Origin: a virus
Lineage: Duplodnaviria; Heunggongvirae; Uroviricota; Caudoviricetes
IMG/VR virus record: IMGVR_UViG_2563366903_000025
Location: 1 to 29,165 of that record
Direction: 5' to 3' (one strand)
Length of the DNA: 29,165 nucleotides
The translations under genes were made by a program, and so were the position numbers. Shown piece after piece: positions 4,854-27,074 of the stretch. The notes beneath the pieces were generated by a model. The model made no database searches. It was not told the DNA's origin and saw only the letters and a program-made list of their open reading frames with translations. The number at the start of each line of letters is the position of its first letter. Within the stretch, counting starts at the first letter, position 1.

Positions 4854-5321
4854 TTAATTCAGGCACTGAGTGCGGATATAGTCCTGTGCCCCTTCCAGCT
4901 GCTTCTGCATCAGCATCAACCGCTCTCTGAGGGTGAAATAATCCCGTTCAGCGGTGTCTGCCAGTCGGGGGCCGGTTGCATTATCCACGCCGGAGGTGCC
5001 GGTGGCTTCACGCACGGTACCGGAGCAGGTGGCGTTGATCCGCAGGCGCTTACGACCAGCGGCAACATCAGCACGCAGAGTTTCATTTTCAGCTCTCGCA
5101 TCAGCTAATTCCCTCGAGTATTTTGCATCGAGCGCAGCAACATCACGCTGGCGCACCTGCATGTCAGTAATGGTTGCGTTTGCCAGCTCCAGCTCTCTGG
5201 CTTTTTTATCGCGCTGCGCTTTGTAGGTGATGGCGTTATCGCGGTAATGGTTTGCTGCCAGCCACAGCGCACCGCAGCCAACCGCCAGGACAATAATCAC
5301 CACACACAGAACACGGTTCAT
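4854..5321 (-). CDS. Rz: Rz i-spanin
   Basis: 155 aa with N-terminal TM segment and coiled-coil body ([20 protein letters not shown]...[15 protein letters not shown]), closely resembling phage 21/lambda Rz as I recall it. Start overlaps the methyltransferase stop (ATGA). Confidence 0.88.
4916..5086 (-). CDS. Rz1: Rz1 o-spanin lipoprotein (embedded in Rz in the +1 frame)
   Basis: From ATG 5086: [17 protein letters not shown]..., a signal peptide with lipobox (VSAC) followed by a proline-rich body. Embedded position within Rz is diagnostic. Confidence 0.8.
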
Positions 5322-6262
5322 ATCACTACCATTTCACTGTTTTCTTTTTTCAGGCGTTTTTTTGCAACAGCGAAATACCGGTCATCCTTTTCTATTCCGG
5401 TAAACCATCTCCCCGTCCGGATACACGCAACACCTGTTGAACCACTCCCCATAGTAAAATCCAGGACCATATCGCCGGGGTTACTGTACGTCTGAATCAG
5501 CTCTTCCAGTAAGGGCACCGGCTTCTGAGTGGGGTGAAAACGCACTTTTTCCCGTGAGTACTCCAGCACATTTGAACGGTATTTTCTCCCGGCGGGGAGA
5601 TTAAACACCTTTTGACCGTAGGCATGATTAAGCTGACACATCGCTTCATATGTCATGAACCCCGGCATCCGGTCGATGCCAAAGCGTTCGATTAATTCGT
5701 TGTACGTTGCCCGTGAGCAGAGGGAAAACTGCGTGGTGTTAACCCTGAAAAAGTGCTCAGCCCGACAGTGTCCAAGCACCTTGTTAACCTCCTTGCCTGA
5801 CCGGTAACCGGTGAAGGAAAGAATGCTTCTGACGTATTCCCTCAGCGGGTGCTTTTTCTCACTATCATATTTTTTGCTGAACACAACAATGTCCTCGAAC
5901 AGCGATACCGGCGCCTTTGGGGCTACCAGCGGATTGGCAAAATGATTTTTTTTCCACACCATGCGATACGAAAACGGCAGATTGTTCAGCGCCTGAGTAA
6001 TCATCGTGCTGGTGTACGGCTCCTGACCGAACAGAATCAGTGTCCCGTTTACCCTCAGCAGACGCTCACACTGTAAGAATATCTCCACCGGGGGTAATGC
6101 TTCATCCCATGATGCTTTCCCTGAATCCCATGAAGGCAGGTTTAGCCCCTTAATGGTTCCATAGGGTGGATCAACGAGGATAAGGTCAATGCTTCCTTCC
6201 GGTAACGTTGGCATAATCTCCAGACAGTCACCATGATACAGAGAACTGTTCATCTCTTTCAC
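5318..6262 (-). CDS. DNA methyltransferase (beta-class N6-adenine or N4-cytosine; orphan, no restriction partner seen)
   Basis: 314 aa. N-terminal DPPY motif (LILVDPPYG) and C-terminal AdoMet-binding motif ([15 protein letters not shown] with upstream HPTQKP). Motif order IV...I suggests the beta class. No adjacent endonuclease-like ORF. Confidence 0.8.
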
Positions 6263-6395: not shown

Positions 6396-6488
6396 CCCCT
6401 TGATAGCAGTAATTAACTGGGCAACCACCCATAAAAACGGAATCAGCCAGACCAGCAAAAATTTCCAGTCCATTTTTATCATCTTCAT
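6396..6488 (-). CDS. Small hydrophobic peptide (30 aa)
   Basis: My translation from ATG 6488, which overlaps the antirepressor stop (ATGA): MKMIKMDWKFLLVWLIPFLWVVAQLITAIKG. Below the ORF-track length cutoff. Confidence 0.3.
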
Positions 6489-7180
6489 GCTGCGGTAGCT
6501 CTCCATGCAGCAAGCAGACCAGCAATCCACTCAACACCTTTTGGGGTGAATTTAACCTGCGTAAAAGCATGACCATTGCCCGCCTCGCCCGTTTTCACGC
6601 TAAACCGCCCCGCATCCAGGTGATGCGAGTAAGGCGTCATTTTTCCAGCGAGGCGATACATTATTCCGTTCTCCAACAAAAACAGCCGGAAATCGGTTTC
6701 TTTGATACCGAGTAACTTAGCAACTTCCCGGAATCCCATCAGACCAGATGCTTCAACATAGTTATCAACAAATTCGGCCTTCGGCGCTGCTATTGCCAGT
6801 TGATTTTCCAGCACTGCTTTCTGTTCAGCCAGTTTTGCCGCAAATCGCAACGCCTCAGGTAAAGTCCGGGGGATCTGAATACCATGCATCGCTTTGAGTC
6901 TTGCCAGCACAGAACGACGAACGGCCTTTGACTCCCTCATGCCAACGAGCATCATCTGGTCAAAATCCAGATCATAGTATGCCGTTCTTGTCTGGTTATT
7001 GTTTAACCGGAATTTTTTTCCGGTTCCATCAAGCTCTAGCTCATCCTCAATTTTTGCAAGAAACTTACGCGGTTCATGAGGGACTTCTCCGGCTTCTGCC
7101 CGGGCTGGATTAATAATGTTATTCAGAAAATCCAGACTACTCATGGATATTTCATGATCGACAGAAATCATCTCTTTCAT
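6485..7180 (-). CDS. Antirepressor-like protein with KilA-C-type C-terminal domain
   Basis: 231 aa. C-terminal segment LPEALRFAAKLAEQKAVLENQLAIAAPKAEFVDNYVEASG... is paralogous to the C-terminus of the 13088..13816 gene ([40 protein letters not shown]). Confidence 0.65.
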   Translation of the reverse strand: MKEMISVDHEISMSSLDFLNNIINPARAEAGEVPHEPRKFLAKIEDELELDGTGKKFRLNNNQTRTAYYDLDFDQMMLVGMRESKAVRRSVLARLKAMHGIQIPRTLPEALRFAAKLAEQKAVLENQLAIAAPKAEFVDNYVEASGLMGFREVAKLLGIKETDFRLFLLENGIMYRLAGKMTPYSHHLDAGRFSVKTGEAGNGHAFTQVKFTPKGVEWIAGLLAAWRATAA

Positions 7181-7453: not shown

Positions 7454-7987
7454 TTATCTGTCGATTCCCCAGCACGCCAGCGCGCTCTCCTGGTCTCGCC
7501 GGGATACCTGACCGTAACAGTTATTTGAGCGAATACGGCAGTCCCTGCCACCGTCCTTAATCCACCAGCGAATCGCCTCACATGCTCCCCTGCGATCACC
7601 AGCATTAATTCGTTTATAAAACGTCGACGGGAAACACTTACCGGGGCCAATGTTGTACGGACAGAATGACGCGATCCCCGCTTTCTGGGGTTCGGTCAGT
7701 GGCACCCGGATGTTTTTCTCCACCCATGCCAGCGCCTTATCACGCTCAATGGCATTAACCCGGTCGCATTTTTCCTTCGACAGCTTCATGCCAGGAATAA
7801 CAGGCTTACCATCCACCCGGGTGGCTCCACGGCAGATGGTCCAGATACCCGCACCATCACGGTATGCTGTGGTGTGGTTGCCTTCTTTTTCATCCAGAAA
7901 CTGGTCGAGAATGTCAGGCGCAGAAGCGCCAGCGGCAATCAGCGCCAGAACGGCAGCCGATAAACCATAGCGGAGTTTTCTGCTCAC
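7454..7987 (-). CDS. R: SAR endolysin (phage 21 R-like lysozyme)
   Basis: 177 aa with an N-terminal signal-anchor-release-like hydrophobic segment (LSAAVLALIAAGASAP), followed by a lysozyme-like body. Sits immediately downstream of the holin. Confidence 0.85.
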   Translation of the reverse strand: MSRKLRYGLSAAVLALIAAGASAPDILDQFLDEKEGNHTTAYRDGAGIWTICRGATRVDGKPVIPGMKLSKEKCDRVNAIERDKALAWVEKNIRVPLTEPQKAGIASFCPYNIGPGKCFPSTFYKRINAGDRRGACEAIRWWIKDGGRDCRIRSNNCYGQVSRRDQESALACWGIDR

Positions 7988-8932: not shown

Positions 8933-10915
8933 TTATGATGATGCCCGGCTTTCGTTAACTTTGACTGTGACCGTATCAAGCAGTACCGGATACGTCGCTT
9001 TTGCCCCCGTGATATCTGTCAGCGTCAGCGTATCTGCTGTAAAGCCATCATTTGTCCACATCACCAGGTCAAACGCAGACTGCTCTGCATCATCAATCAC
9101 CGGCACCACTTTTTCGCTGTTATTTCCCGCAAAGCGGAAAACAACTGTATGCCAGTTATGGTCAAATGCCCCAAATGTGCCCAGTTGCGCATTCGACTCC
9201 CCCTTGTGGTACATCAGATTCAGATTTGATGCATCCGTCTGAAGGAAGAAGGACGCCAGCATGCTGTTTGCTGTCGCGCCTGACGCCCACTGCGACACCG
9301 GCCAGTACAGACCAAAGACAAACTGACCGTTAACCAGTTCGACACCCTCCGGGATCTTAAACCGCACGGCAATTTCACCTCCCTTACTGAGAAGATTTTT
9401 TGCCTCCTCCACCGCAACAGTACGGAACATCTTCCAGGAGGTCAGTTTACCCGGCTGTTTTTCCAGTCGCAGCGCCTTCCTGCCACTGTCATCCGTCACA
9501 GTGCCTTTACCACCGGACGCATTCCACTGCTGCTCTGTCCATACACCACTGCCACTGTTCGCATCATATCCGGCCACCATTCTTGTTACGGCTTCAGTAT
9601 GACCGCCTGCAGAAGTACCTGCACCCTGCTGTTGCGTCGGACCCGCAGAGCCAGACTGTGCATCCCCCGTGGAGGCTGGCGTGGTCGCCAGCGGTGCAGA
9701 CTGCCCGCTCAGGAACGGCAGCAAACGCCCGGCTCGCACCAGTATCTCTCCTGCCAGCCGATCTGAAACAATGCCTCTTCGCGCCCAGGAGCTGAAGTGC
9801 GTTTTACGATCGGCTGTCGTCCAGTTACCATTACTGCGTGACGCGGCACCATAGTATCCCGCCGTGATAATGTCCGGATCTTCTGACGGCTCGTTTGTCG
9901 GCACATTCGCACCATGCTCATCCGTCATCAACGGCACAAAGTGAATATTCTGCGCCGCCTTGCCTTTATAGCCTCCGTAAACCGCCTCATACTGCACTGC
10001 ATACTTCGCCTTCCAGTCGTACGTGGTGTCACCGCAAATCCACGGGACGCCGGACGTTGTCCCGCCAATACACTGGTCTGCAATATCTGCCAGGTCTGCA
10101 CGGTATTTATTTACCATGGCAAGAAAAAGTGCATTGTGCTCTGCATGTCTCCCCGAACTGACATCTTTTTCCCCCTGCATCCAGATCACCGACAACAGCA
10201 CGTTTTTCGGATTTTTCTTCAGGGCTGCACGCGTTCTGCTGACCAGGTCACGATACAACGGTTTATCCACCCCCCACAGGGAAGAGCCCGCTGTCGCACC
10301 CGACGCCTCATTAAACGCGCCCTCTGCTCCCGCAGTAAATCCCGAATCGCCACGTCCACACGGGACAAGAAGGATCCCCGCACGGGCAGGCATAAACGGC
10401 AGCAGTTTTTTGGCCACATGCAGGGCATGCCCCACACAGCCATACTGCCCTTTATTGAGGTCTGCTTTCGGGTGATTCAGATTACTCACGTCCTGCACAT
10501 CATGCAGACAATGGTCTGCAGGAATAATGTCGTTATATGCACAGGCCGCACCGCCCGGTGTCACCGTGCTGCGACGCGCCAGTTGCTTAATACGCGGGTC
10601 AGGACGATCATACGTATCCGGCAGCGGCAGCCCCTCGCCAAAAGACATCGAGTTGGACTGCCCGGCCAGCGCAATGACAAAGTAATATTCCGGTTCGCTG
10701 GTGGTGCTGATAACAGCGCCACCATCACCCGACGGTTGCACCACCACCGGTGTGGTGACATCACCTTCCGCCGCAATGGCCTGCATCAGGGTATAGGGCG
10801 TGATGGCCACCGGACTGCCAAATGGCTGCCACCCCTCCTTCAGTTTTTGAGTCAGTCGCTCCGCAAGGTCTGACGGCGACGCCGCCCTGACCACGTCATA
10901 GTGTTTAAATGTCAT
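8933..10915 (-). CDS. nanS: Prophage sialate O-acetylesterase (NanS-p-like; SGNH/SASA esterase)
   Basis: 660 aa. N-terminus MTFKHYDVVRAASPSDLAERL (DUF1737-like), a GQSN block (FVIALAGQSNSMSFGEG) typical of SGNH/SASA esterases, and a long C-terminal extension. Positioned downstream of Q, as NanS-p genes are in Stx and lambdoid prophages. Confidence 0.8.
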   Translation of the reverse strand: MTFKHYDVVRAASPSDLAERLTQKLKEGWQPFGSPVAITPYTLMQAIAAEGDVTTPVVVQPSGDGGAVISTTSEPEYYFVIALAGQSNSMSFGEGLPLPDTYDRPDPRIKQLARRSTVTPGGAACAYNDIIPADHCLHDVQDVSNLNHPKADLNKGQYGCVGHALHVAKKLLPFMPARAGILLVPCGRGDSGFTAGAEGAFNEASGATAGSSLWGVDKPLYRDLVSRTRAALKKNPKNVLLSVIWMQGEKDVSSGRHAEHNALFLAMVNKYRADLADIADQCIGGTTSGVPWICGDTTYDWKAKYAVQYEAVYGGYKGKAAQNIHFVPLMTDEHGANVPTNEPSEDPDIITAGYYGAASRSNGNWTTADRKTHFSSWARRGIVSDRLAGEILVRAGRLLPFLSGQSAPLATTPASTGDAQSGSAGPTQQQGAGTSAGGHTEAVTRMVAGYDANSGSGVWTEQQWNASGGKGTVTDDSGRKALRLEKQPGKLTSWKMFRTVAVEEAKNLLSKGGEIAVRFKIPEGVELVNGQFVFGLYWPVSQWASGATANSMLASFFLQTDASNLNLMYHKGESNAQLGTFGAFDHNWHTVVFRFAGNNSEKVVPVIDDAEQSAFDLVMWTNDGFTADTLTLTDITGAKATYPVLLDTVTVKVNESRASS

Positions 10916-11900: not shown

Positions 11901-12293
11901 CTAATCATTTTTTACTTTTTTGGGCAGCCAGTCGTCCATCTCCAGCCTTACACCCAGCATCGACAGACATCCGTCAATAAATCCTTCAGCAATCTGCATC
12001 TCAATTCGTATTGCCTTTTCGCTCTTCTTTCTTGTTCTGGCAATCTGCCTTTTTGATATGCGCAGCAGATAATGAGCTACCAGCAGCGAATACTCGTCCG
12101 GTTTTTTCTTCTTCAGGCGCGTAAGGCAGTTTTCGATGATAAGGCCGTCATCATCGCTGCAGGCCGGGCGAGGTTTAGCGGTGGATGGTAAAAGGCCTTT
12201 AAATCCAGCAGCTATCGGAGAATAGTCCACCCCGGTGTTACCACTTGCCGCCCATGCCCCCCAGCGTTCAAGAACCTGCTGAATATCACGCAT
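11901..12293 (-). CDS. Q: Late antiterminator Q (933W/21-type Q family)
   Basis: From ATG 12293: [35 protein letters not shown]...LKKKKPDEYSLLVAHYL...RLEMD, matching the Q933W-type pattern as recalled. Overlaps the ninH 3' end. Confidence 0.8.
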   Translation of the reverse strand: MRDIQQVLERWGAWAASGNTGVDYSPIAAGFKGLLPSTAKPRPACSDDDGLIIENCLTRLKKKKPDEYSLLVAHYLLRISKRQIARTRKKSEKAIRIEMQIAEGFIDGCLSMLGVRLEMDDWLPKKVKND

Positions 12294-12486
12294 CAGAGTC
12301 TTTACCCTTATCCCATCCACGATGGACCATAAGGACACCGTTGACGACGGCGTGCCGTTTGCCTTCTTTATCGCCAATATATTTTCTGACCGTGTTGCGA
12401 CTACAGTTCAGTATTCTGGCTACCTCGGTCTGATTTTCATATGCCTCAACGAGCATGTCAGGAATGGTTTTTACTGTGAACGTCAT
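12286..12486 (-). CDS. ninH: NinH
   Basis: 66 aa [58 protein letters not shown], near-identical to lambda NinH as recalled. Confidence 0.85.
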
Positions 12487-13088
12487 GCGGCCTCACTTCT
12501 GCTGTTTCGCAGGTCTTTGAGTTTCTGTTGGTACTCTGCCTTGATGGCCCTGCACTCTTCGACAGTCCAGCGATGGCGGTTATGGTTTGATTCGATTTCA
12601 TCTACTGCTTCCTGCCCGATGCGGCTAATCAGTTCGACGCGATACGGAACGAGATTTCCGCTTTTGTGCTGGTTGCACACCACGCATTGCTTGTGAATAT
12701 TGCGTTCATCAAATCGGAGTTGAGGTGCCGCAGCAGTTGTCCGGTAATGTCCGGCATCCCACTGAGCAGACGTGAGCGTTCCGCACGAGATACATGGTAA
12801 GTCGCGGTCTCTTTCTCTGATGAAGGCGTTTACGGCTTGTTGGGCTTGTTTAATCCAGTAACTGCGGGGCTTTAAGGCGAGTTTTCGAATCTTCAGTTTA
12901 TCTTTCTGTTTCTGCTCCTCTCGTCGTCGTTTCTTCTCTGCTGCTTTTTCCGCTTTTTCGCGTTCTTTACTTCGTCGTTCGAGTGCTAATTGAGTTCCGT
13001 GTTCCGGGCAGCACCACCACTGATTTGAGAATGCCGGGTGAAACCATTCCTTGCATATTTTGCATTTCCTTCGCGCTGGTTTAGCCAT
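12483..13088 (-). CDS. ninG: NinG (Rap) recombination protein
   Basis: 201 aa, near-identical to lambda NinG over most of its length ([61 protein letters not shown]...). Confidence 0.9.
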
Positions 13089-13816
13089 TAAGCAGCCTCC
13101 CCTGTTACTTTCAGCATTCCGTTATCGAGCAGCTTTCTGGTCAGCCACTGTTGACCACGCCCGGTGATTTTTGTGGTGAACGATATCTGTATTCCGTGAT
13201 TTGTGTTGACCGCTGTTTCTTTCACTGTGAAATAGCCGCGCTCCATATATTCCTGCATTGGCACATTTCGCCGGGAACCTGAAGTAATAAGGATTTTGTG
13301 ATCGCGCATCCACGCAAACAGTTTGTTTGGACCAATTCCAACAACCTTTGCATAGTTTCCAATCAAAATTCCGCTGGCCTCGCCAACGCGATCGGCAAAC
13401 TCAACTTTAGGTGCTGCGAGAGCAAGCTGTTTCTCCAGTTCAGCCTTCTGGTCTTCAAGGTCGGCCGCAAGGCGCAATGCCTCAGAAAAGGTTTGTGGTA
13501 TTTTCGCGGTTGCCCCTTCGAGTTCTCGCCAACGGTCAACAAGACGAGCGGTGAATTCCGGCGACAACTGAGCGACGACAATAATGCTGTCGCGCTTACC
13601 TTTTTCGCCTTCGAAGACGTAATGCTCGTACTGAACATTGAACCCTAAGTTATTGATTCTTTCGGAAACCTCAATTTGAGGAAGCCGGATAACTCCACTT
13701 TTAACCAGCGTTTCGATGGTTCGTTTCACATTGTCATGACGCTTACCTGTAAGCTCAGCGATTTCAATGCTAGTCATTTTGATGACGTTGCTATTTATCA
13801 GCTCGTTCATTGTCAT
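13088..13816 (-). CDS. Rha N-terminal / KilA-C C-terminal antirepressor-like protein (Roi-like)
   Basis: 242 aa. N-terminal Rha hallmark ([19 protein letters not shown]) and C-terminal KilA-C-like domain. Located between ninG and the nin accessory gene. Confidence 0.7.
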
Positions 13817-15192: not shown

Positions 15193-15633
15193 TCATGCAG
15201 CCCTGTCTCCCCATCTCGCTTTCCATTCCAGAGCCAGTCTCGCTTCGTCTGACCACTTAACGCCACGCTCTGTACCGAATGCCTGTATAAGCTCTAATAG
15301 CTCCGCAAATTCGCTTACACGCATCCTGCTGGTTGACTGGCCTATTACCACAAAGCCATTCCCGGCAAGGTTAGGAACAACATCCTGCTGCTTTAATGCT
15401 GCGGTAAACACACACTTCCAGCTTTCTGCATCCAGCCAGCGACCATGCCATTCAACCTGACGAGAGACGTCACCTAAGCAGGCCCATAGCTTCCTGTTTT
15501 GGTCTAAGCTGCGGTTGCGTTCCTGAATGGTTACTACGATTGGTTTGGTTGGGTCTGGAAGAATTTGCTGGATAGCTTGAATGGCGTTCTGCTGATGGAT
15601 GGGGCTTCTTAGTTCAAATGTTAGTTTCCTCAT
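15193..15633 (-). CDS. ninB: NinB (Orf) recombination protein
   Basis: From ATG 15633: [76 protein letters not shown]..., near-identical to lambda NinB as recalled. Confidence 0.9.
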
Positions 15634-15802
15634 CACCCTTAATCCTCTCGAAGTTCTTCTCGAAGTTTTTGGTGTCGAACACTGACCACCGACCATTATG
15701 AATGGCGTATGCACAGGTCTTGTTTTCGTCCTGATAAACTACCCTTACCTTGCGATAAAACCGTGGCTTAATCTCTCTGAATATTTGCTCGCTCATGCTC
15801 AC
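15614..15802 (-). CDS. Hypothetical protein (62 aa)
   Basis: Strong AAGGAG RBS upstream of the ATG. Overlaps the ninB start by 20 nt. No recognised family. Confidence 0.45.
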   Translation of the reverse strand: MSMSEQIFREIKPRFYRKVRVVYQDENKTCAYAIHNGRWSVFDTKNFEKNFERIKGDEETNI

Positions 15803-16507: not shown

Positions 16508-16794
16508 CTTTTAACTCCATATACCGCCAATACCCGTTTCATCACTGCACTCTGGCGACACTCCTTAAAAATCAGGTTCGTGCTCACCTTTCCTTCCCGT
16601 TCTTCCCTGGTAGCAAACCGGTAATACACCGTTCGCCAGACCTTACCATCAATGACCAGGATTCCTGCCCGCGCCATTTTAGCCGCAGCCTGATTTATAC
16701 TGGTTACGGTTGCGCCTGTTACCGCGGAAACGTCCTGTGCACAGAAGTTCTTATGCGCCCCGAGGTAATGAATAATTGCCTCTTTGCCCGTCAT
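16504..16794 (-). CDS. ren: Ren
   Basis: 96 aa MTGKEAIIHYLGAHKNFCAQDVSAVTGATVTSINQAAAKMARAGILVIDGKVWRTVYYRFATREEREGK..., near-identical to lambda Ren as recalled. Confidence 0.9.
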   Translation of the reverse strand: MTGKEAIIHYLGAHKNFCAQDVSAVTGATVTSINQAAAKMARAGILVIDGKVWRTVYYRFATREEREGKVSTNLIFKECRQSAVMKRVLAVYGVKR

Positions 16795-17492
16795 ACACTT
16801 GCTCCTTTCAGTCCGAACTTAGCTTTAATTTCTGCGATCTTCGCCAGAGCCTGTGCTCGATTTAGAGGTCTGCCGCCCATGACAGGAAGTTGTTTTACTG
16901 GTTCAGGTATCGTCTCACCACGGTTAATTCGTGCTGTCATACAGGTCAGTTCATCGGCAGCCTTGCGCCGTAATTCCGCGTCAGTCAGCGCATTGGCCCG
17001 CATGTTCTGGTACAGGTTGGTAACCAGCCAGTAGTGCGCGTTTGATTTCCACGGATAAGACTCTGCATCCGGATACAGGCCACGCTTCCGGCAATACTCG
17101 TAAACCATATCAACCAGCTCGCTGACGTTTGGCAGTCCGGCGATAACGGATGCTTCTTCCCGGCACCATGCAACAAACTGCCCGGGTGATGGAAGAAATG
17201 GTCGATTCTGCCGACGGGCTACGCGCATTCCTGCGTTAACCTGTTCCATCGAGGTGATCCCGTTTTCCCGGAAAGCCAGAACCCACTGGCGGCGGATTTC
17301 ATTCAGTTCGTTCTGGCCCCGGTTAGCCAGACTCGCCGGGAAAGTTGCCAGTAACTGGCTGAACACACCGTTGATGATCTGCGCTACCTGTTGTACCTGC
17401 GGCTTTTCGTCGTACTGTTCCGGCATGTTGTTGGCGATCCGACGCATCTGCTCACGGTCAAAGTTAACCATCTGTGCGGCGATGTTTTTCAT
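16791..17492 (-). CDS. P: Replication protein P (DnaB helicase loader)
   Basis: 233 aa, essentially lambda P throughout ([58 protein letters not shown]...). Confidence 0.95.
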   Translation of the reverse strand: MKNIAAQMVNFDREQMRRIANNMPEQYDEKPQVQQVAQIINGVFSQLLATFPASLANRGQNELNEIRRQWVLAFRENGITSMEQVNAGMRVARRQNRPFLPSPGQFVAWCREEASVIAGLPNVSELVDMVYEYCRKRGLYPDAESYPWKSNAHYWLVTNLYQNMRANALTDAELRRKAADELTCMTARINRGETIPEPVKQLPVMGGRPLNRAQALAKIAEIKAKFGLKGASV

Positions 17493-18394
17493 AAATCCAC
17501 CCCGTAAATCCAGTCAGTGTTTGTCAGGTCGAGTTTTGGTTTTCCAGCTGTCACGCCAGCCTGTTGCTTGTTACGGTTGATTTCGAGTTGGGTCCACTTG
17601 TCGCGGAGTTTGGCCGGACTTAGCACGTTACCGGACCAGAAGTTGTCCTGGCATGCCCAGCGGAACAGCACGCACATGTCGCGGTGGTTACGTCCGTCAC
17701 GTTCACGCATCAGGCGGATATCGTTAGCCCACCCTGCAAAATTCGGTTTTCTGGCTGATGGTGCGATGGTCTTCACCATGTCAAACATCCACTCTGCGGC
17801 GGTCAGGTCTTCTGCTGTTCCCCACTTGCTGCCGCTCTGAATTGCAGCATCCGGTTTAACCACAGAAAGATCGTTTTCTGGCTGGTCAGAGGATTCGCCA
17901 GAATTCTCGGACGAATAATCTTTTCTTTTTTCTTTTGTAATAGTTTCTTTTGTGTGTCCCTGTTTTGGTGACAGCGCTGTCACCGTTTTGGTGACACTTT
18001 TTGTCACCAATGCAGTGACATTATCACCAGAGTAGTGACACCCTTCGATTTGCCATTCCTCGATGTTCTTGTTAGGCCCGATTTGCTGGCCTTCGCGAAG
18101 GATAACCTTCATCGCGATAAGCTCATTCTTGGCCTTGTTTACCTTCTGTCTTGGCAGCCTGGTAATTTGAGCTAACTGACTATCAGAGATGCGATCCATC
18201 TTTTTACCGTAGCCGTATGTTTTACGGCATATGGCGTGGGCAACCTTGCTCTGATTTTTCGTTAAATCTGCGCCGATAAGCTCTTCATACAGGGCATTTG
18301 CAAGACGGGTATAACCATCTTCAACTTCTGCCACACGACGCTCCACAGGCCGTTGTGAAGGCCTTAAATGTGTTACGGTTGCAAGATTACTCAT
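17489..18394 (-). CDS. O: Replication initiator O
   Basis: 301 aa. C-terminal half matches lambda O ([13 protein letters not shown]...[100 protein letters not shown]). N-terminal DNA-binding half is diverged, consistent with a different iteron specificity. Confidence 0.95.
17915..18043. repeat. Replication origin: iteron cluster plus adjacent AT-rich region inside the O gene
   Basis: Four tandem dyad iterons built on GTGACA...TGTCAC: GGTGACAGCGCTGTCACC (17967-17984), GGTGACACTTTTTGTCACC (17990-18008), GTGACATTATCACC (18015-18028), GTGACACCC (18035-18043). A T-rich stretch follows at 17915-17950, in the same position as ori-lambda within O. Confidence 0.7.
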
Positions 18395-19306: not shown

Positions 19307-20014
19307 ATGGTTCAGAATGAAAAAGTGCGCAAAGAATTCGCCCAGCGGCTAGCGCAAGCCTGTAAAGAAGCTGGTCTTGATGAACATGGTAGGGGAATGG
19401 CTATAGCCCGTGCCCTTTCTCTTTCGTCCAAAGGCGTTAGCAAATGGTTTAATGCTGAGTCTTTACCGCGTCAGGAAAAAATGAATGCGCTTGCGAAATT
19501 TCTAAACGTTGATGTTGTTTGGCTTCAGCACGGCACTTCGTTAAATGGAGCGAATGATGAAGATACTCTTTCATTTGTTGGCAAATTAAAAAAAGGGTTA
19601 GTGCGCGTGGTTGGTGAGGCAATTCTTGGTGTTGATGGTGCCATCGAGATGACCGAAGAGCGCGATGGGTGGCTCAAAATTTATAGCGATGATCCAGATG
19701 CCTTTGGTCTTCGTGTGAAAGGAGACAGCATGTGGCCCAGAATAAAATCAGGAGAATATGTACTCATTGAGCCTAACACCAAAGTATTTCCGGGGGATGA
19801 GGTGTTTGTCAGAACTGTTGAAGGACACAACATGATCAAAGTTCTTGGCTATGACAGAGACGGAGAATACCAATTTACAAGCATCAACCAGGACCACAGG
19901 CCAATAACGTTGCCTTATCATCAAGTAGCAAAGGTGGAGTATGTGGCTGGTATTCTGAAGCAATCTCGCCATCTGGATGACATCGAGGCAAGGGAGTGGC
20001 TGAAAAGTTCGTGA
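19307..20014 (+). CDS. cI: CI-type prophage repressor (HTH plus LexA/S24-like autocleavage domain)
   Basis: 235 aa. N-terminal HTH region, then a C-terminal domain with S24-like features (GDSMWPRIKSGEYVLIEP...). Divergent from cro across the operator region. The ATG sits directly after the operator, suggesting a leaderless pRM-type transcript as in lambda. Confidence 0.88.
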   Translation: MVQNEKVRKEFAQRLAQACKEAGLDEHGRGMAIARALSLSSKGVSKWFNAESLPRQEKMNALAKFLNVDVVWLQHGTSLNGANDEDTLSFVGKLKKGLVRVVGEAILGVDGAIEMTEERDGWLKIYSDDPDAFGLRVKGDSMWPRIKSGEYVLIEPNTKVFPGDEVFVRTVEGHNMIKVLGYDRDGEYQFTSINQDHRPITLPYHQVAKVEYVAGILKQSRHLDDIEAREWLKSS

Positions 20015-20150: not shown

Positions 20151-20438
20151 ATGAAGGTCTTAAACGTAGAGAGGCTTCACAGTTTTAGCCGGAAGCACAA
20201 TCAGGCCAAGGGGGCTTTAGACTCTTGGTATGATGAAGTGATAAGAGAAAACTGGAAAACGACTCAAGACATACGGAATAGATTTAATTCTGCCGACTTC
20301 CTTCCTAACAACAGGGTAATTTTTAATATAAAAGGCAATAACTATCGGCTCGTTGTCCAAGTTGTTTACCAGGCAGGAATGGTCATAGTTGAAAGAGTTG
20401 GAACTCATGCAGAGTACGACAAGTGGAGGCTTAAATGA
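20151..20438 (+). CDS. higB: HigB-family toxin (RelE/ParE superfamily)
   Basis: 95 aa. C-terminal ...GNNYRLVVQVVYQAGMVIVERVGTHAEYDKW parallels E. coli HigB ...NELRVVAMVFFESQKCYIREVMTHKEYD as recalled. Toxin-first order typical of hig loci. Stop overlaps the next start (ATGA). Confidence 0.75.
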   Translation: MKVLNVERLHSFSRKHNQAKGALDSWYDEVIRENWKTTQDIRNRFNSADFLPNNRVIFNIKGNNYRLVVQVVYQAGMVIVERVGTHAEYDKWRLK

Positions 20439-21091
20439 ATCGAACTAGCTGGCGCATCATTAAAAATAGTGAAGAGCATGCTGCAGCTATGGAAAGGCTC
20501 ATTGAACTTGCGTCTAGTGATTTACAACCTGGAACTGAAGATTTTGATGAGTTTGAACTACTAGGCTTGCTTATCGAGCACTATGAGTCACGCGAGTTCC
20601 CTATGGACAAGCCAGATCCCATAGAAGCAATCAAGTTCCGTATGGATCAACAAGGCCTCTCTTATGCCGATATGAAACAATACATTGGCTCAGCATCTAA
20701 AGTATCTGAGGTCTTAAATCGTAAGCGTCCATTAAGTCTTTCAATGATCCGTAGACTACATGACGGACTTGGAATTCCTGCAGATATCTTAATTCAAGAT
20801 ATGAGCGCAATTGAATGGAGCCTAGTTGACGCAGAGGAAGAAGAAACAGCCATGACTAGCGTCATTGCTCGGTGTGAGTCAGCCGTCACATCACCTTCTG
20901 CTTATTTCGCTGAAAAGGCTACAGAATCTTACTTTTCAAAAATGTTGTTCAGCGCAGTAAGGGGTAATGGCAAATGCAAAGAAAAACGGAATGTTTTTTC
21001 TTTGATAAGTAACTTGTCATCAAGTTTCACAGCGGCTAGCAACCTGAATGACGAAATGACTTCTGACGGAAATTACTTATTATTACCATGA
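20435..21091 (+). CDS. higA: HigA-family HTH antitoxin with about 95-aa C-terminal extension
   Basis: 218 aa. Residues up to about 125 match the HigA pattern (PDPIEAIKFRMDQQGLSYADMKQYIGSASKVSEVLNRKRPLSLSMIRRLHDGLGIPADILI). Canonical HigA ends there; this protein continues with an acidic, Ser-rich tail. Confidence 0.75.
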   Translation: MNRTSWRIIKNSEEHAAAMERLIELASSDLQPGTEDFDEFELLGLLIEHYESREFPMDKPDPIEAIKFRMDQQGLSYADMKQYIGSASKVSEVLNRKRPLSLSMIRRLHDGLGIPADILIQDMSAIEWSLVDAEEEETAMTSVIARCESAVTSPSAYFAEKATESYFSKMLFSAVRGNGKCKEKRNVFSLISNLSSSFTAASNLNDEMTSDGNYLLLP

Positions 21092-21492
21092 AAATTGAAC
21101 TCATTAGCAAAAAAGTTGAACGCTTGGTTATGACACGGCTAGAAGGCGATTCAACAGCAAAAAAAGCCATAAAAACAACCGTTAATCTAAATAATGAACT
21201 TTACACTAATGTGAAGGATTCAAAGCTATTTAGAGTGAGATATTTTGCCTCCGTAACTATTGAAGGCAGGCTTGAGATGGACATCACATACGACTTTGAC
21301 TTCCGGTCAGAAGATGATTTTTCTCATGAAATGGCAAAATCATATGAGGTAAGGTCCATTGCTCCCAATATGGCATATCCCTATATAAAAACATATGCCG
21401 AGCAAATTATCCTCATGTCAAACCTTGGTAGGTTCACTCTGCCTTATTTTGATTTCTTGGCCAATCCCATGGAAACGAACAGTAATAAGTGA
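21088..21492 (+). CDS. SecB-like chaperone candidate (third gene of the cassette)
   Basis: 134 aa, translationally coupled (ATGA). Segments FRVRYFASVTIEG and APNMAYPYIKTYAEQIILMSNLGRF resemble E. coli SecB ([34 protein letters not shown]) as recalled from memory. Confidence 0.55.
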   Translation: MKIELISKKVERLVMTRLEGDSTAKKAIKTTVNLNNELYTNVKDSKLFRVRYFASVTIEGRLEMDITYDFDFRSEDDFSHEMAKSYEVRSIAPNMAYPYIKTYAEQIILMSNLGRFTLPYFDFLANPMETNSNK

Positions 21493-21990: not shown

Positions 21991-22374
21991 ATGACACGCA
22001 GAACTCAGTTCAAAGGCAATTCACGTTCTCGTCGTCGTGAGCGTTTAAAGGCAAAGGCATTAGCTAACTGCGTACTGGCCCGCGAAGAAGCAATAAGTTC
22101 AGAAGTATTACACCGCCCTACTCTAAGCAGAGCGCAGATTCAGGCTAAAGGTACTCACGAAACGCCTGAGCGCATAGAAGACGCTAAGCCAATTAAGTTC
22201 ATTGCACAGGACGTGATCTGGCAACAGAAAGAATACAGACGCAATCTGGAGCGAGCAGCCATTGTGTACGCGAATGAGTTTGGACATAAGCAACCAGAAA
22301 CTGGTGTATGTCTTCCAAACGTAGCCATTTACGCGGCAGGCTACCGGAAATCAAAACAACTGACGGCAAGATGA
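21991..22374 (+). CDS. N: Antiterminator N (P22 gp24-like)
   Basis: 127 aa with N-terminal arginine-rich motif (GNSRSRRRERLKAKALA) and C-terminus LPNVAIYAAGYRKSKQLTAR matching P22 N as recalled. AGGAGG RBS. Confidence 0.8.
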   Translation: MTRRTQFKGNSRSRRRERLKAKALANCVLAREEAISSEVLHRPTLSRAQIQAKGTHETPERIEDAKPIKFIAQDVIWQQKEYRRNLERAAIVYANEFGHKQPETGVCLPNVAIYAAGYRKSKQLTAR

Positions 22375-22715: not shown

Positions 22716-22743
22716 GTGTATTCATTCCAACGAGTGAATACAC
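22716..22743 (+). promoter_or_regulatory. Perfect 9-bp inverted repeat hairpin upstream of cIII
   Basis: GTGTATTCA-N10-TGAATACAC. Confidence 0.35.
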
Positions 22744-22805
22744 GGAGCAATGTCGCTCGTAACTAAACAGGAGCCGACTTGTTCTGATTATTGGAAATCT
22801 TCTTT

Positions 22806-22830
22806 GCCCTCCTATGTGAGGGCCTTTTTA
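22806..22830 (+). terminator. Intrinsic terminator between N and cIII (tL-type)
   Basis: GCCCTC-ctatgt-GAGGGC followed by CTTTTTA. Confidence 0.5.
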
Positions 22831-22891
22831 TATGCATACCAATAACGCTTCACTCGAGGCGTTTTCGTTATGTATAAATAAGGAGCACACC

Positions 22892-23032
22892 ATGCAATAT
22901 GCCATTGCAGGGTGGCCTGTTGCTGGCTGCCCTTCCGAATCTTTACTTGAACGAATCACCCGCAAATTACGTGACGGATGGAAACGACTCATCGACGTAC
23001 TTAATCAGCCAGGAGTTCCCAAAAATGGATAA
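22892..23032 (+). CDS. cIII: CIII (inhibitor of FtsH-mediated CII degradation)
   Basis: 46 aa MQYAIAGWPVAGCPSESLLERITRKLRDGWKRLIDVLNQPGVPKNG, matching lambda CIII as recalled but shorter at the C-terminus. AGGAG RBS. Confidence 0.85.
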   Translation: MQYAIAGWPVAGCPSESLLERITRKLRDGWKRLIDVLNQPGVPKNG

Positions 23033-23138
23033 AACACTTATGGCTATCCAGACTAAATTCACTATCGCCACTTTTATTGGCGATGAAAAGATGTTTCGTG
23101 AAGCCGTCGAAGCCTACAGGAAATGGAGGTCAAAATGA
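23025..23138 (+). CDS. kil: Kil (FtsZ inhibitor)
   Basis: 37 aa MDKTLMAIQTKFTIATFIGDEKMFREAVEAYRKW..., matching lambda Kil N-terminus as recalled. Overlaps the cIII 3' end as in lambda. Confidence 0.8.
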   Translation: MDKTLMAIQTKFTIATFIGDEKMFREAVEAYRKWRSK

Positions 23139-23323
23139 TTCCGGTAGAACTGGCGAAAACTCCAGAGTTAAGTCGATTAAAAAGAGAATATCACATTGCT
23201 GAGGCTCGTTACTGGCGTAAAGCGGGAGATAAATCAAAGAAACAACTTTGCTTATGGCAGGCGCAAAGAGAGCGCATGAATGAGCGCGAGTTTCTTTCCT
23301 CCTCATCCGAATTACCATTCTGA
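23135..23323 (+). CDS. Hypothetical protein (62 aa)
   Basis: Coupled to kil (ATGA). Basic protein, no recognised family. Confidence 0.4.
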   Translation: MIPVELAKTPELSRLKREYHIAEARYWRKAGDKSKKQLCLWQAQRERMNEREFLSSSSELPF

Positions 23324-23331
23324 GGTGAATT

Positions 23332-24012
23332 ATGGGAACTGCAACATTAATACTCGGTGAATCTGGCACCGGAAAATCAACCAGCATGAGAAATATCAAT
23401 CCAGAGGAAGCAATACTTATAAAACCAATAGGCAAGCCGCTACCATTTAAATCAAAAGAATGGCTGGCATGGGATGCCAGAGCAAAAAAAGGAACCGTAG
23501 TTACCACTGACAAATGGGACGTAATAGTTGCCGTAATTAAGCGTGCTCACGAATACGGGAAAAGAATCGTTATTGTTGATGACTTCCAGTATGTGATGAG
23601 CAATGAGTTTATGCGCCGCTCAGAAGAAAAATCGTTTGATAAATTCACTGAGATAGGCCGCCACGCATGGGAGGTGATTAAGGCTGCACAGGATGCACCT
23701 GATGACCTGAGAGTCTATTTTCTTGCACACACCGAAGAAACCCCTATGGGGCGTGTGAAAATGAAAACTATCGGCAAAATGCTGGACGAGAAAATCACTG
23801 TCGAAGGCATGTTTACTATAGTTCTTCGCACCCTTACCCGTGATGACCAGTTCTTTTTCACTACAAAAAACAACGGTGCAGACACTGTTAAATCCCCAAT
23901 GGGAATGTTTGATTCCAATGAGATTGATAACGATCTCTCTTTCGTCGATGCCACTGTTTGTGATTACTACGGCATCAATAATGTTCATCAAATTAAGGAA
24001 AACGCCGCATGA
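23332..24012 (+). CDS. Sak4-like RecA-core ATPase (single-strand annealing/recombination protein)
   Basis: 226 aa. Walker A GESGTGKS near the N-terminus, Walker B-like RIVIVDDFQY. Occupies the gam-bet-exo position. Confidence 0.6.
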   Translation: MGTATLILGESGTGKSTSMRNINPEEAILIKPIGKPLPFKSKEWLAWDARAKKGTVVTTDKWDVIVAVIKRAHEYGKRIVIVDDFQYVMSNEFMRRSEEKSFDKFTEIGRHAWEVIKAAQDAPDDLRVYFLAHTEETPMGRVKMKTIGKMLDEKITVEGMFTIVLRTLTRDDQFFFTTKNNGADTVKSPMGMFDSNEIDNDLSFVDATVCDYYGINNVHQIKENAA

Positions 24013-24596
24013 GCAACGTGATTTTTACTTATAACGAAGAAGCAGCACTGACCGCAGGGCAAGGTGGTTTTATTAACGAAACTGGCGCTCATATCATTAC
24101 CATTACTGAAGCAGAACTAAAGCAATCAGAAAAAGGAGCCAAATTTATTGAGTTTTCTGGCGAATCCGACGACGGACGTAAAATCCAGTATCTTAGCGTT
24201 TGTGTTCAGAAAAATGACGGAACGGAAAACAAGTTTGGTGCAAATGTCGTTCATGCCATGATGGGGTGTGTTGGGATTAAGCAGTTAACGCAACATATGG
24301 TTTCCGCCAGTAAATTTGTTGCACCTGAATTTCATGGAAAGAAAATCGGGTTAGTGCTCCAGAAAGTATTAACCACAAACAAAAGGACTGGTGCAGACAG
24401 CTATCAGATGGAAATACGCATCCCGTTTATTGCACAAACAGGTCAAACCCTTAAAGAAAAGGCAGAAGGCAAGCAACCAGAAACTATCACCAACATGGTT
24501 GCCCATCTCAAAGATAAAGACAATCGCTCTAAAAACGTAAGCCAGAATCATGCAGATGATTATGGTTACAGCCAGAACGATTACCCTTCTTTCTGA
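24009..24596 (+). CDS. DUF669-like protein, putative ssDNA-binding partner of Sak4
   Basis: 195 aa, coupled to the Sak4-like gene (ATGA). Acidic/aromatic C-terminal tail (DDYGYSQNDYPSF) reminiscent of SSB tails. Family assignment from memory. Confidence 0.45.
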   Translation: MSNVIFTYNEEAALTAGQGGFINETGAHIITITEAELKQSEKGAKFIEFSGESDDGRKIQYLSVCVQKNDGTENKFGANVVHAMMGCVGIKQLTQHMVSASKFVAPEFHGKKIGLVLQKVLTTNKRTGADSYQMEIRIPFIAQTGQTLKEKAEGKQPETITNMVAHLKDKDNRSKNVSQNHADDYGYSQNDYPSF

Positions 24597-24619
24597 TTAC
24601 TGAAAATAAGGCTCCCATT

Positions 24620-24916
24620 ATGCCAGCGCCTCTGTATGGTGCGGATGACCCGCGCAACTGCTCCGGTAGCTCCAAGGCGGAGGTGCTGGAAAATATCAAA
24701 AACAATTTCGACGCGTTTCTTGCTCTGACACCAGAAACAAAAGCAGAACGGATGTACCGACGCGATATACAACTCGCAGAAAAACAGGAAAAAGACCGAA
24801 TAAACGAAACATCAATCCGACCATTCCGCAAAGCCACATATACCAACTTCCCTGAATATATCGACCCGCGCCTGCGTAATTACCGCTCACGCTATGGCGC
24901 TATCAGTAATGACTGA
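24620..24916 (+). CDS. Hypothetical protein (98 aa)
   Basis: ORF in the early-left operon. No recognised family. Confidence 0.4.
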
Positions 24917-24926
24917 GGAATTTACC

Positions 24927-25091
24927 ATGAGAGGACTTGCATACAATCCCGGCATTCTTCCGGCAGAAATGATTATTCGCCAACGCGTAAAGCCAATGCC
25001 ATCGAGAGAGGAATTGCTTAAGAGAAATTCTTTTCCATCAGTAAATCAAAACAAATATCTGAATGCGATGTTGCGGAGTGGGAAGAAATGA
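24927..25091 (+). CDS. Hypothetical small protein (54 aa from ATG 24927)
   Basis: GAGGAA RBS precedes the ATG at 24927. The ORF-track start at 24894 would overlap the previous gene. Confidence 0.3.
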
Positions 25092-25875: not shown

Positions 25876-26644
25876 TTATCAGACACTGCGTGAAAAGGCA
25901 GAGAAAGCAACTAAAGGAAGCTACATCGTAGGGCATACATCTGTTAACCAGCACGGCAATTTAACAGGAGTTTTTGTTTGTCAAAAATGGAAAGGAGAAC
26001 CCGGTGGCGTGATTGCAGAATGTCATGTTAACTGCCTGGTTGAAACAGATGCTCAGGCTTATGCAAACGCTGAGTTCATAGCAGAGGCCAATCCGACTGC
26101 TGTCTTGGCACTGCTGGATGAACGGGAAAGAAACCAGCAATACATCAAACGCCGCGACCAGGAGAACGAGGATATTGCGTTAACGGTAGGGAAGCTGCGC
26201 GTTGAGCTTGAGGAGACAAAATCAAAACTCAACGAGCAGCGTGAGTATTACGAAGGTGTTATCTCGGATGGGAGTAAGCGTATTGCTGAACTGGAGAAAA
26301 TCGCCACTGACTATGCACTGAAATTTCAGAAAGCCCAGGACGCATTAAAGTACGCTGTTTTGCTGCGCAAATCAGGGCAGGAAGCACGGGAAATAAAACC
26401 AGCCAAAGGCGAAGTTCTTGTCGTTGTATCTGGTTTTACTGGTTGCGGAAAAAGCGCCATCGCCGGGGAAATAGAAATCGCGATGAAGTCTATTGGTGTA
26501 CCGGTTAAGTGGACTAATGGCGATGCGGAAAAGCGCATGACAGGAGCTGACTGGCTGACAGCGATTGAGATGTACAAACCAACAGTGCGCATCGTGGAAG
26601 TTAATGTGCCACGCGCTGCTGGCATTCGCATCAAAGGAGAGTGA
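25861..26644 (+). CDS. Ea22-like early protein (GTG start)
   Basis: AGGAGG precedes the GTG at 25861. VSEINYQTLREKAEKATKG... N-terminus and central coiled coil resemble ead/Ea22-like prophage proteins as recalled. Confidence 0.45.
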
Positions 26645-26645
26645 G

Positions 26646-27074
26646 ATGACCACTATTACCAATAAGAAACAGTATCCCAGCGAGCAATATCTTAATGAGC
26701 TGATCACCAACATAGAGTTTGCTGCAAGGGCACCAGTTGAAGTCGTGAGAGCAATGGCAGCAGAGCTACAGAAGCGGCGCGAAGCTGATAGTGCAGAACC
26801 TGTAAGCCAAACTTACAGGTTGCCACAAACGCAGTTTGAACAGGTTGCTGACCTCTACGAAATGCAATTTGATGACGGACGCACTTGCGCCTTTCACACT
26901 GATGCACAAAAGGCTGCGCAATGGCTTCAGGCATGCGACGGAAACAGGGTTCAGGAATACGTGAAACTGGAGCGACTGCAGAACGCGCTATCGGACAACT
27001 ATCCGGTAACTCCGGATGGTTGGATAAGCTGTAGTGATCGAATGCCGGACGACAGGCAGGAGGTGAATCAATGA
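26646..27074 (+). CDS. Hypothetical protein (142 aa)
   Basis: GGAGAG RBS before the ATG at 26646. No recognised family. Confidence 0.45.
   Translation: MTTITNKKQYPSEQYLNELITNIEFAARAPVEVVRAMAAELQKRREADSAEPVSQTYRLPQTQFEQVADLYEMQFDDGRTCAFHTDAQKAAQWLQACDGNRVQEYVKLERLQNALSDNYPVTPDGWISCSDRMPDDRQEVNQ

Follow-up and report, generated by a model that had tools for sequence, protein, structure and literature searches.

An HK620-type hkaM-sak4-ssb-abc2 recombination module very probably follows cIII and kil in a lambdoid prophage

The window analyzed here is the whole 29,165-nt stretch of prophage DNA. On its plus strand, three closely packed open reading frames (ORFs) occupy 23135-24596 and encode a 62-aa protein, a 226-aa ATPase with Walker A and B motifs and an acidic-tailed protein of 195 aa, exactly where an earlier sequence-only reading had located them. 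The genes and features of this region, together with two replication genes that bear on its interpretation, are as follows; tRNA genes were absent from the window.

22806..22863, plus strand: two terminator-like hairpins upstream of cIII (terminator scan)
22892..23032, plus strand: cIII, lambda-type, 46 aa (Pfam Lambda_CIII, 3e-30)
23025..23138, plus strand: kil, lambda-type, 37 aa (Pfam Lambda_Kil, 8e-22)
23127..23128, no strand: mosaic junction (blastn against lambda and against HK620)
23135..23323, plus strand: hkaM homologue, 62 aa (97% identical to HK620 HkaM)
23332..24012, plus strand: sak4 (hkaL), 226 aa, assigned by identity to HK620 Sak4 as a RecA-core-only ATP-dependent single-strand annealing protein
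24009..24596, plus strand: ssb (hkaK, SSB-HK620, "SSB-2", DUF669-like), 195 aa (96% identical to HK620 HkaK)
24620..24916, plus strand: abc2, P22-type RecBCD modifier, 98 aa (Pfam Anti-RecBCD_p2 and PHROG 656)
24927..25091, plus strand: hkaI-like DUF2737 gene (Pfam DUF2737, 6.5e-32)
16791..17492, minus strand: P-like helicase loader (PHROG 109, 1.4e-97)
17489..18394, minus strand: O-like initiator

The Pfam matches of cIII and kil agree with the earlier description of both genes as lambda-like. The two hairpins preceding them lie where the HK620 annotation places tL2A/tL2B. A premature stop leaves cIII with 46 aa, compared with 54 aa in lambda, and the tblastn alignment to lambda cIII extends beyond this stop; the HK620 annotation notes that its cIII is shortened likewise. 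Over residues 1-34, the kil product shows 91% identity to lambda Kil (tblastn). At the DNA level, lambda homology (95% identity) spans cIII and kil and breaks off sharply at 23127, which corresponds to lambda 33228 in the region of the gam start codon, while identity to HK620 carries on across 23127/23128. Because the lambda identity ends at the gam start position, the mosaic junction that had been proposed here is real, and it falls within the 3′ end of kil. What follows kil thus stands in place of lambda gam-bet-exo, as the sequence-only reading had also held. By tblastn (E<=0.01), no homologue of lambda Gam, Bet or Exo was found anywhere in the window, nor did lambda orf60a give a tblastn match in it, and the downstream ORFs had no Gam/Bet/Exo-type Pfam or PHROG matches.

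Comparison with HK620 DNA by blastn and sliding identity revealed 95% identity over 22700-25296 (2.6 kb), a shared block that continues through the hkaI-like gene and ends near 25296. ATGA overlaps were found at kil/hkaM (23135-23138, with GGAGG located 6 nt upstream of the hkaM ATG) and at sak4/ssb (24009-24012), and these start-stop overlaps are, as sequence features, consistent with translational coupling. We assign the stretch with high confidence to the HK620-type recombination ("Rec") module of lambdoid prophages, with the gene order hkaM-sak4-ssb-abc2; nothing speaks against this assignment. The fourth gene, abc2, lies outside the coordinates covered by the earlier reading; it is the next gene after ssb and belongs to the same Rec module. 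The finding is already known, in that the module is the prototype of the "HK620-type", real but ordinary, and the HK620 module (Sak4, SSB-2, Abc2) is one listed type of lambdoid Rec module (PMC12315714). None of the four module ORFs is disrupted, their start-stop overlaps are kept, and the Sak4 protein is unchanged relative to HK620; these observations argue against the view that the prophage is defective and the cassette a silent passenger, contributing nothing to host or phage. Defective prophages are frequent in E. coli, and the shortened cIII, as well as a DUF551 ORF (26565..27074) that seems truncated, could be taken as signs of decay. However, the same shortened cIII occurs in the viable phage HK620, and the terminase, lysis, Q, O/P, cI, xis and int genes of the window are all intact, which makes the passenger explanation unlikely.

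The ATPase shows 100% amino-acid identity to HK620 Sak4 (HkaL), a stronger outcome than the "Sak4-like" label originally given to it. Its Walker A motif, GESGTGKS, comprises residues 9-16 (nt 23356-23379), and its Walker B motif, IVIVDD, residues 79-84 (nt 23566-23583). The HMM searches proposed earlier as a check on AAA_24/Sak4 membership returned PHROG 2872 ("Sak4-like ssDNA annealing protein") at 3e-108 over residues 1-220 of 226 and Pfam AAA_24 at 30 bits (cut-off 27), both far above chance; a PDB sequence search with Sak4 yielded nothing meaningful. With 226 aa covered by one spanning domain match, the protein falls in the range of about 220-290 aa of core-only Sak4 proteins, which are without the RecA N- and C-terminal domains. 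The start of the adjoining ssb-type gene overlaps the sak4 stop, and an ssb-type neighbour is found at about 80% of sak4 genes.

On its Pfam matches, which are generic and modest (AAA_24 at 30 bits, AAA_22 at 27 bits), the ATPase might also be read as a replication factor, that is a helicase loader or other AAA+ protein, with an unrelated partner whose acidic tail arose by chance. The databases leave room for such a reading: NCBIfam has no specific model for the ATPase or for any of the other three module proteins, and RefSeq labels the module genes merely "ATP-binding protein", the name of the ATPase, and "hypothetical protein". Nevertheless, the protein is identical to the biochemically characterised Sak4 (PMC5928155) and has the PHROG 2872 match, the prophage possesses a separate O-like initiator and P-like helicase loader, and the OB-fold model of the partner matches SSBs. 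Moreover, replicative helicase loader (lambda P/DnaC-like) profiles in Pfam, PHROG and NCBIfam did not match the 226-aa ATPase. A replication role is hence extremely unlikely, and the identity to HK620 Sak4 already rules out the helicase-loader scenario, which the sequence-only reading had named as the outcome that would overturn it.

HK620 Sak4 has been characterised as an ATP-dependent RecA-core-only annealase, whose ssDNA binding and annealing in vitro require ATP and which gives no strand exchange (Hutinet et al. 2018, PMC5928155). In the same study, sak4 alone increased recombineering 15-fold, and sak4 together with ssb reached the level of the whole module, measured at 210-fold. These published experiments on the same proteins back the earlier proposal of an alternative single-strand annealing system, and by analogy with the identical HK620 protein, the window Sak4 would be expected to bind and anneal ssDNA and to promote recombineering (PMC5928155). 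The RecA/Rad51-core fold family and the Walker motifs, and the 20-fold increase in post-conjugation recombination in vivo upon sak4 and ssb co-expression (PMC5928155), would also fit a genuine RecA-like recombinase, one that assembles into filaments, invades duplex DNA and exchanges strands. We consider this very unlikely, because Sak4 neither exchanged strands nor stimulated RecA in vitro, its activity in vivo was 500-fold below that of RecA, and it is without the C-terminal DNA-binding domain of RecA (PMC5928155).

The partner protein matched PHROG 743 ("single strand DNA binding protein") at 7e-66. It ends in an acidic tail, ...DDYGYSQNDYPSF, with Phe at the end, and nt 24576-24593 code for the final six residues, NDYPSF. 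The AF2 model (pLDDT 81) predicts an OB-fold core followed by a disordered tail (residues 177-195, pLDDT below 50). In a Foldseek search of the PDB, the best 50 matches were almost all OB-fold SSB-type proteins, led by PrgE (8s4s, 4.6e-4) and followed by SsbA and others, with modest TM-scores of 0.4-0.56; a PDB sequence search with the SSB yielded nothing meaningful. The SSB-like character and acidic-aromatic tail recognized earlier hold up, as residues 177-195 are the disordered part and all 31 homologues keep the terminal Phe. The accompanying "DUF669-like" label fared unevenly: the window protein itself did not match the Pfam DUF669 model (PF05037) even at E<=10, and the family assignment rests instead on fold matches (best BFVD match by Foldseek a DUF669 protein at E 2.5e-13, with N4-like SSB proteins also found), on sub-threshold DUF669 matches in 6 of the 31 homologues (best E 0.0052) and on the literature, with NCBI naming the homologues "DUF669 domain-containing".

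The SSB tip reads NDYPSF here and NDYPPF in the tested HK620 protein, and the NDYPSF variant was found in none of 65 related IMG/VR loci. Across the family alignment of 31 homologues only the terminal Phe is invariant, and the position before it may be P, A, S, Q or D without restriction, which makes it likely that the change is tolerated. The E. coli ssb-113 mutation is P176S, and an analogy with it would cast the P-to-S tip change as disabling; this was not pressed, given the variability of the penultimate residue across the family. SSB-HK620 (tail NDYPPF) binds ssDNA and stimulates Sak4 via its last six residues, without which recombineering was 10-fold lower (PMC5928155), and both activities may be expected of the window SSB by analogy with this 96%-identical protein.

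Immediately downstream, Abc2 matched Pfam Anti-RecBCD_p2 (PF11043) at 1.1e-39, with residues 1-98 aligned on model positions 1-97, and PHROG 656 at 1.8e-48. It is 68% identical to HK620 Abc2 and 65% identical to P22 Abc2, for which PMC12315714 cites a structure in complex with RecBCD; relative to HK620, the centre of the gene (about 24650-24800) has been replaced by a diverged patch. The sequence-only reading had found no gam-like anti-RecBCD gene; gam is indeed absent, but the claim was wrong in substance, since abc2 is a RecBCD modifier gene.

The 62-aa ORF, correctly described as preceding the sak4-ssb pair, encodes an HkaM homologue that matched PHROG 1723 at 1e-32. It is labelled "recombinase" in PHROG and RefSeq, which is annotation only, and a literature search for "hkaM" returned unrelated papers only. 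HkaM had no effect in the oligo recombineering assay that has been published. In the AF2 model, helices at residues 10-30 and 33-49 are followed by a tail at 53-62 with pLDDT below 50; HkaM is thus predicted to be a basic helical hairpin with a disordered tail ending in ELPF-COOH. The family alignment (34-68% identity) contains only seven invariant columns, two of which are the terminal Pro-Phe-COOH, with the consensus ...FLG-x-PF. Without exception, the family gene is the immediate upstream neighbour of a phage annealase gene, which may be of the Sak4/AAA_24, Rad52-like or Erf type, and in 102 of 111 HkaM loci a downstream ORF has an SSB-type ...[IP]PF tail; locus scans with single proteins gave 26 loci with one query and none with two others. 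The C-terminus of E. coli SSB is D-I-P-F and that of SSB-HK620 is Y-P-P-F, and the SSB tip is read by annealases of unrelated folds. P22 Arf, considered as a further bearer of the xPF tail, was ruled out, as it ends in ...FAGYYS. The coincidence of the Pro-Phe tip with annealase adjacency is a point previously unreported.

Based on the hairpin-plus-tail model, the invariant Pro-Phe, the adjacency to annealases, the SSB-type tails at these loci and the existence of tip-reading annealases, we tentatively suggest that HkaM may represent a small family of annealase/SSB-module accessory factors acting via a mimic of the SSB C-terminal tip, a possibility that we regard as doubtful on balance. Its PF tip could dock in the pocket that receives the SSB tip, either in the annealase or in host SSB clients such as ExoI, RecJ, RecQ or PriA, tuning recombination. 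If the Pro-Phe tip were such a mimic, HkaM would represent a new type of small regulator in the SSB interaction network, common to three unrelated annealase families.

As for how the module may work, the gene identities, their order and overlaps, the lambda junction and the predicted OB fold with its disordered tail come from this analysis, and published work on the identical (Sak4) and 96%-identical (SSB) proteins provides the ATP dependence of ssDNA binding and annealing, the stimulating effect of the SSB tail and the recombineering activity. Transcription of the module very probably starts at pL, as part of the early-left operon behind N, cIII and kil and under N antitermination. The phage OB-fold SSB would cover ssDNA, and its NDYPSF tip would bring Sak4 to the coated strand and stimulate annealing; Sak4, as a RecA-core-only ATPase, would bind ssDNA and anneal complementary single strands in an ATP-dependent manner. 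Abc2 would bind host RecBCD and alter it, whereas Gam blocks it, and because the enzyme would be altered instead of blocked, RecBCD could supply the end-processing that lambda Exo gives in Red. We infer that the proteins encoded in the window act like those studied, even with the NDYPSF variant of the SSB tail and an Abc2 that has diverged.

Of 5426 complete E. coli genomes, 240 (~4%) carry the cassette, as do 352 phage records, and it is common in Stx-converting phages, which makes it relevant to the recombination and diversification of these phages. Among lambdoid phages it is the textbook substitute for lambda Red, biochemically characterised and already serving as a reference type when Rec modules are catalogued. 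The practical value of identifying it here lies in annotation, given the vague RefSeq names.

Among known systems, the HK620 module hkaM-hkaL(sak4)-hkaK(ssb)-hkaJ(abc2) (Clark 2001; Lopes 2010; Hutinet 2018, PMC5928155) has the same genes in the same order and at the same place behind cIII-kil, whereas the remainder of the prophage, with its immunity region, int and late genes, is unrelated to HK620. The DUF669/N4-type phage SSBs (N4, Lc-Nu, PhiAT3) also sit beside sak4 and combine an OB-fold core with an acidic tail, and the best BFVD matches of the window SSB are DUF669 proteins and the SSBs of Vibrio phage phi50-12 and Roseobacter phage RD-1410W1-01, although its sequence similarity to this group is below the Pfam DUF669 threshold. 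The P22 module arf-erf-abc1-abc2 shares the four-gene layout, the position and a homologous abc2, with Sak4 standing for Erf, SSB for Abc1 and HkaM for Arf, pairs that have no sequence similarity (PMC5928155; tblastn). Lambda Red occupies the same place in the pL operon, right after cIII-kil, and does the same overall job of RecA-independent, annealing-based recombination with RecBCD control. The proteins are nevertheless unrelated: the annealase here is a RecA-fold ATPase that needs its own SSB, not a Rad52-like ring, and in place of a dedicated exonuclease, RecBCD would be re-purposed by Abc2 rather than blocked.

The ORF list and the sequence confirmed that three ORFs follow cIII and kil at 23135-24596, as the sequence-only reading had described, and the Pfam matches bear out its view that cIII and kil are lambda-like. 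The genes of this region are as follows.

22892..23032, + strand: cIII (Pfam Lambda_CIII, 3e-30)
23025..23138, + strand: kil (Pfam Lambda_Kil, 8e-22)
23135..23323, + strand: hkaM homologue, 62 aa (ORF list and sequence; PHROG 1723 match)
23332..24012, + strand: sak4, ATPase of 226 aa (ORF list; Walker A GESGTGKS at residues 9-16, Walker B IVIVDD at residues 79-84)
24009..24596, + strand: ssb, partner protein of 195 aa with the C-terminus ...DDYGYSQNDYPSF (ORF list and sequence)
24620..24916, + strand: abc2, P22-type (Pfam Anti-RecBCD_p2, 1.1e-39; PHROG 656, 1.8e-48)

The kil stop codon contains the hkaM start within an ATGA (23135-23138), with GGAGG lying 6 nt upstream, and the sak4 stop codon contains the ssb start in the same arrangement (ATGA, 24009-24012); both overlaps are consistent with translational coupling. 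The cIII gene encodes 46 aa, compared with 54 aa in lambda, owing to a premature stop beyond which the similarity to lambda cIII extends (22892..23053), and the HK620 annotation carries the same stop.

The ATPase, read earlier as Sak4-like, was identified as Sak4: it matched PHROG 2872 (“Sak4-like ssDNA annealing protein”) at 3e-108 and Pfam AAA_24 at 30 bits (cut-off 27), and is 100% identical to the Sak4 of phage HK620. The 195-aa partner matched PHROG 743 (“single strand DNA binding protein”) at 7e-66. Among the 352 phage records matched by megablast, HK620 displayed 95% identity across the whole 2.3-kb query, with the homologous genes hkaM, hkaL (sak4), hkaK (ssb) and hkaJ (abc2), and its SSB and HkaM proteins are 96% and 97% identical to those of the window. 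The block shared with HK620 spans 22700-25296 at 95% identity, whereas the remainder of the prophage is unrelated to HK620. These high protein identities indicate that the module is the system of Hutinet et al. (2018; PMC5928155) itself and not a relative. The earlier interpretation was essentially right, except that it missed abc2 and that the DUF669 match is sub-threshold.

Comparison of the window with lambda by blastn returned two segments of 95% identity, window 22684-22833 (lambda 34072-33923) and window 22834-23127 (lambda 33522-33228), between which ea10 (lambda 33523-33922) is cleanly missing, at 22833/22834. The lambda identity stops at 23127, which corresponds to the gam start codon of lambda (gam, 33232 to 32816, lambda complement strand); the “clear mosaic junction” claimed after kil is thus correct and lies at 23127/23128, within the kil 3′ end. 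No homologues of Gam, Bet, Exo, orf60a, P22 Erf, Arf or Abc1 were found in the window by tblastn. The statement that no gam-like anti-RecBCD gene is evident therefore holds for Gam itself but overlooked abc2, the gene directly downstream of ssb, which gives the phage an anti-RecBCD function other than gam. The window Abc2 is only 68% identical to that of HK620 and 65% to that of P22, because its central part has been replaced: in this second mosaic patch (~24650-24800) the DNA identity to HK620 is 56%, against 94-100% in the flanks. Abc2 binds RecC and blocks the Chi response, by which RecBCD is modified (PMC12315714), and it thereby stands in for a phage exonuclease. The module and two genes of the nin region complete the usual lambdoid recombination toolkit.

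15193..15714, − strand: NinB/Orf recombination mediator
12483..13088, − strand: NinG/Rap junction endonuclease

Whether the partner is DUF669-like, as had been proposed, depends on the level of comparison. The current Pfam DUF669 model gave no match to the window SSB at E<=10, and matched weakly in 6 of 31 homologues (best E 0.0052), yet most of the homologues are named “DUF669 domain-containing protein” by NCBI, and the HK620 SSB corresponds to DUF669 according to Hutinet et al. (PMC5928155). An AlphaFold2 model built from the 31 homologues (pLDDT 81) combines a core rich in beta structure with a disordered tail (residues 177-195). Nearly all Foldseek matches of this model in the PDB were OB-fold proteins of SSB type, including PrgE (8s4s, 4.6e-4), B. 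subtilis SsbA and many more, with modest TM-scores; in BFVD, the top match was a DUF669 protein (E 2.5e-13, TM 0.66), followed by the SSBs of Vibrio phage phi50-12 and Roseobacter phage RD-1410W1-01 and more DUF669 proteins. These matches support the designation “DUF669-like SSB” at the level of the predicted fold; at the profile level the relation stays sub-threshold.

The SSB tail of the window ends in NDYPSF (24576..24593), where HK620 has NDYPPF. Across 65 related IMG/VR loci the tips were NDYPPF (57/65), NDYPAF (7/65) and NNYPPF (1/65), with NDYPSF in 0/65. The changed penultimate residue occupies the position of the E. coli ssb-113 mutation P176S. The variant is rare but probably tolerated, because the terminal Phe is the only tip residue invariant across the SSB family.

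HkaM is labelled “recombinase” in PHROG 1723 and in the RefSeq HK620 record, and a literature search found no experimental basis for the label, which seems to be an artefact of annotation. Oligo recombineering with sak4 and ssb did not change when hkaM and abc2 were included, and the only experimental paper on HkaM gives its function as unknown (PMC5928155). Word-index and exhaustive profile searches of 1.84 billion representative proteins returned only a small family of 54-73 aa, whose alignment (34-68% identity) has seven invariant columns, S13, A24, R28, G31, E46, P61 and F62. The C-terminal consensus is ...FLG-x-PF-COOH, in which Pro-Phe is among the most conserved residues and resembles the tip of SSB tails. 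The protein carries 13 K/R and 9 D/E, and its AlphaFold2 model shows a helical hairpin (residues 10-30 and 33-49) and a disordered tail (53-62).

In the compared IMG/VR loci (L003-L114), hkaM always lies immediately upstream of an annealase, whether Sak4/AAA_24, Rad52_Rad22 or ERF. Close homologues of HkaM occur in 80 loci, of which 65 have the full sak4-ssb-abc2 set downstream and another 13 a Rad52_Rad22 annealase with a canonical SSB. In a distant branch (26 loci), the downstream gene encodes ERF in 24 cases and AAA_24 or a Rad52-type annealase in one case each; behind it comes either a canonical SSB or small SSB-like ORFs ending ...D[SDEW]IPF. Other hkaM/annealase combinations were found in Buttiauxella and Salmonella genomes, and an ORF whose tail is of SSB type (...[IP]PF) lies downstream in 102 of 111 hkaM loci, counted crudely. 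The final seven residues of SSB are recognised by RecT-type annealases (bioRxiv 10.1101/2020.04.14.041095), and the tip of the cognate SSB by Sak4, so a shared SSB-tip pocket is the sole feature by which these otherwise unrelated annealases could be linked, and a PF-tipped HkaM could target it. That HkaM is an SSB-tip mimic, an accessory of annealase/SSB modules, is a speculative idea that we consider rather unlikely, and the absent effect in the published recombineering assay argues for caution.

Two further variations were seen among these loci. Proteins of 127-150 aa without a Pfam match (L090, for instance at 4284..4670, L092-L102, L103, L104, L109 and L110) begin with M(A/G)H(S/T)IT(V/I)(R/K)L(N/Q)K and end ...DDSIPF, DWDIPF or DDDIPF, their genes lying between Erf and either abc2 or other genes; they look like one more mini-SSB family whose tip is of the E. 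coli type, and may be the “SSB-1b/1c” of PMC12315714. L020, L026 and L075 carry a Sak4 variant 51% identical to that of the window and ~600 bp extra before an ssb of 96-97% identity, a pattern indicating that sak4 alleles have been exchanged while the surrounding hkaM/ssb frame stayed conserved.

Elsewhere in the prophage, three genes (20151..21492) occupy the interval between cI and N where lambda has rexAB, and the 218-aa HTH protein among them is likely a HigA-type antitoxin. On the − strand, anti-repressor-type genes lie at 4129..4677, 6485..7180 and 13088..13816; one of the three is Rha-like and the other two are Ant-like. The ORF at 26565..27074 matches Pfam DUF551 over positions 1-16 only, at the extreme C-terminus of the ORF, where it stops; it is probably a DUF551 (eaA/hkaE-like) gene that has been truncated or frameshifted.

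19307..20014: cI
20151..20438: HigB-type toxin gene (Pfam HigB_toxin, 4.6e-30)
20435..21091: 218-aa HTH protein with a long C-terminal extension, overlapping the toxin gene
21088..21492: 134-aa ORF overlapping the HTH gene (PHROG 10298)
21991..22374: N
5318..6262, − strand: DNA methyltransferase
7454..7987, − strand: endolysin gene
8933..10915, − strand: 660-aa protein, between Q and the endolysin gene (PHROG 143)
11901..12377, − strand: Q

The mechanism is drawn from work on the HK620 proteins (PMC5928155). Purified Sak4 requires ATP for ssDNA binding and for annealing of complementary strands, and performs no strand exchange and gives no help to RecA. In oligo recombineering, Sak4 alone gave a 15-fold increase and SSB alone had no effect, while Sak4 with its SSB did as well as the full module of four genes, measured at 210-fold; removal of the last six SSB residues lowered the stimulation 10-fold, and Sak4 then failed to bind SSB-coated ssDNA. 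The window copies would be expected to act likewise, a short step given the identities. The 1.46-kb segment was found in 240 of 5426 complete E. coli genomes (179 at >=80% coverage), almost all copies being chromosomal, and many Stx1a- and Stx2a-converting phages among the megablast-matched phage records also carry it. A published catalogue counts the HK620 module among 13 types of lambdoid Rec module (PMC12315714), and the module of the window is this already known and experimentally characterised system rather than a novel one.
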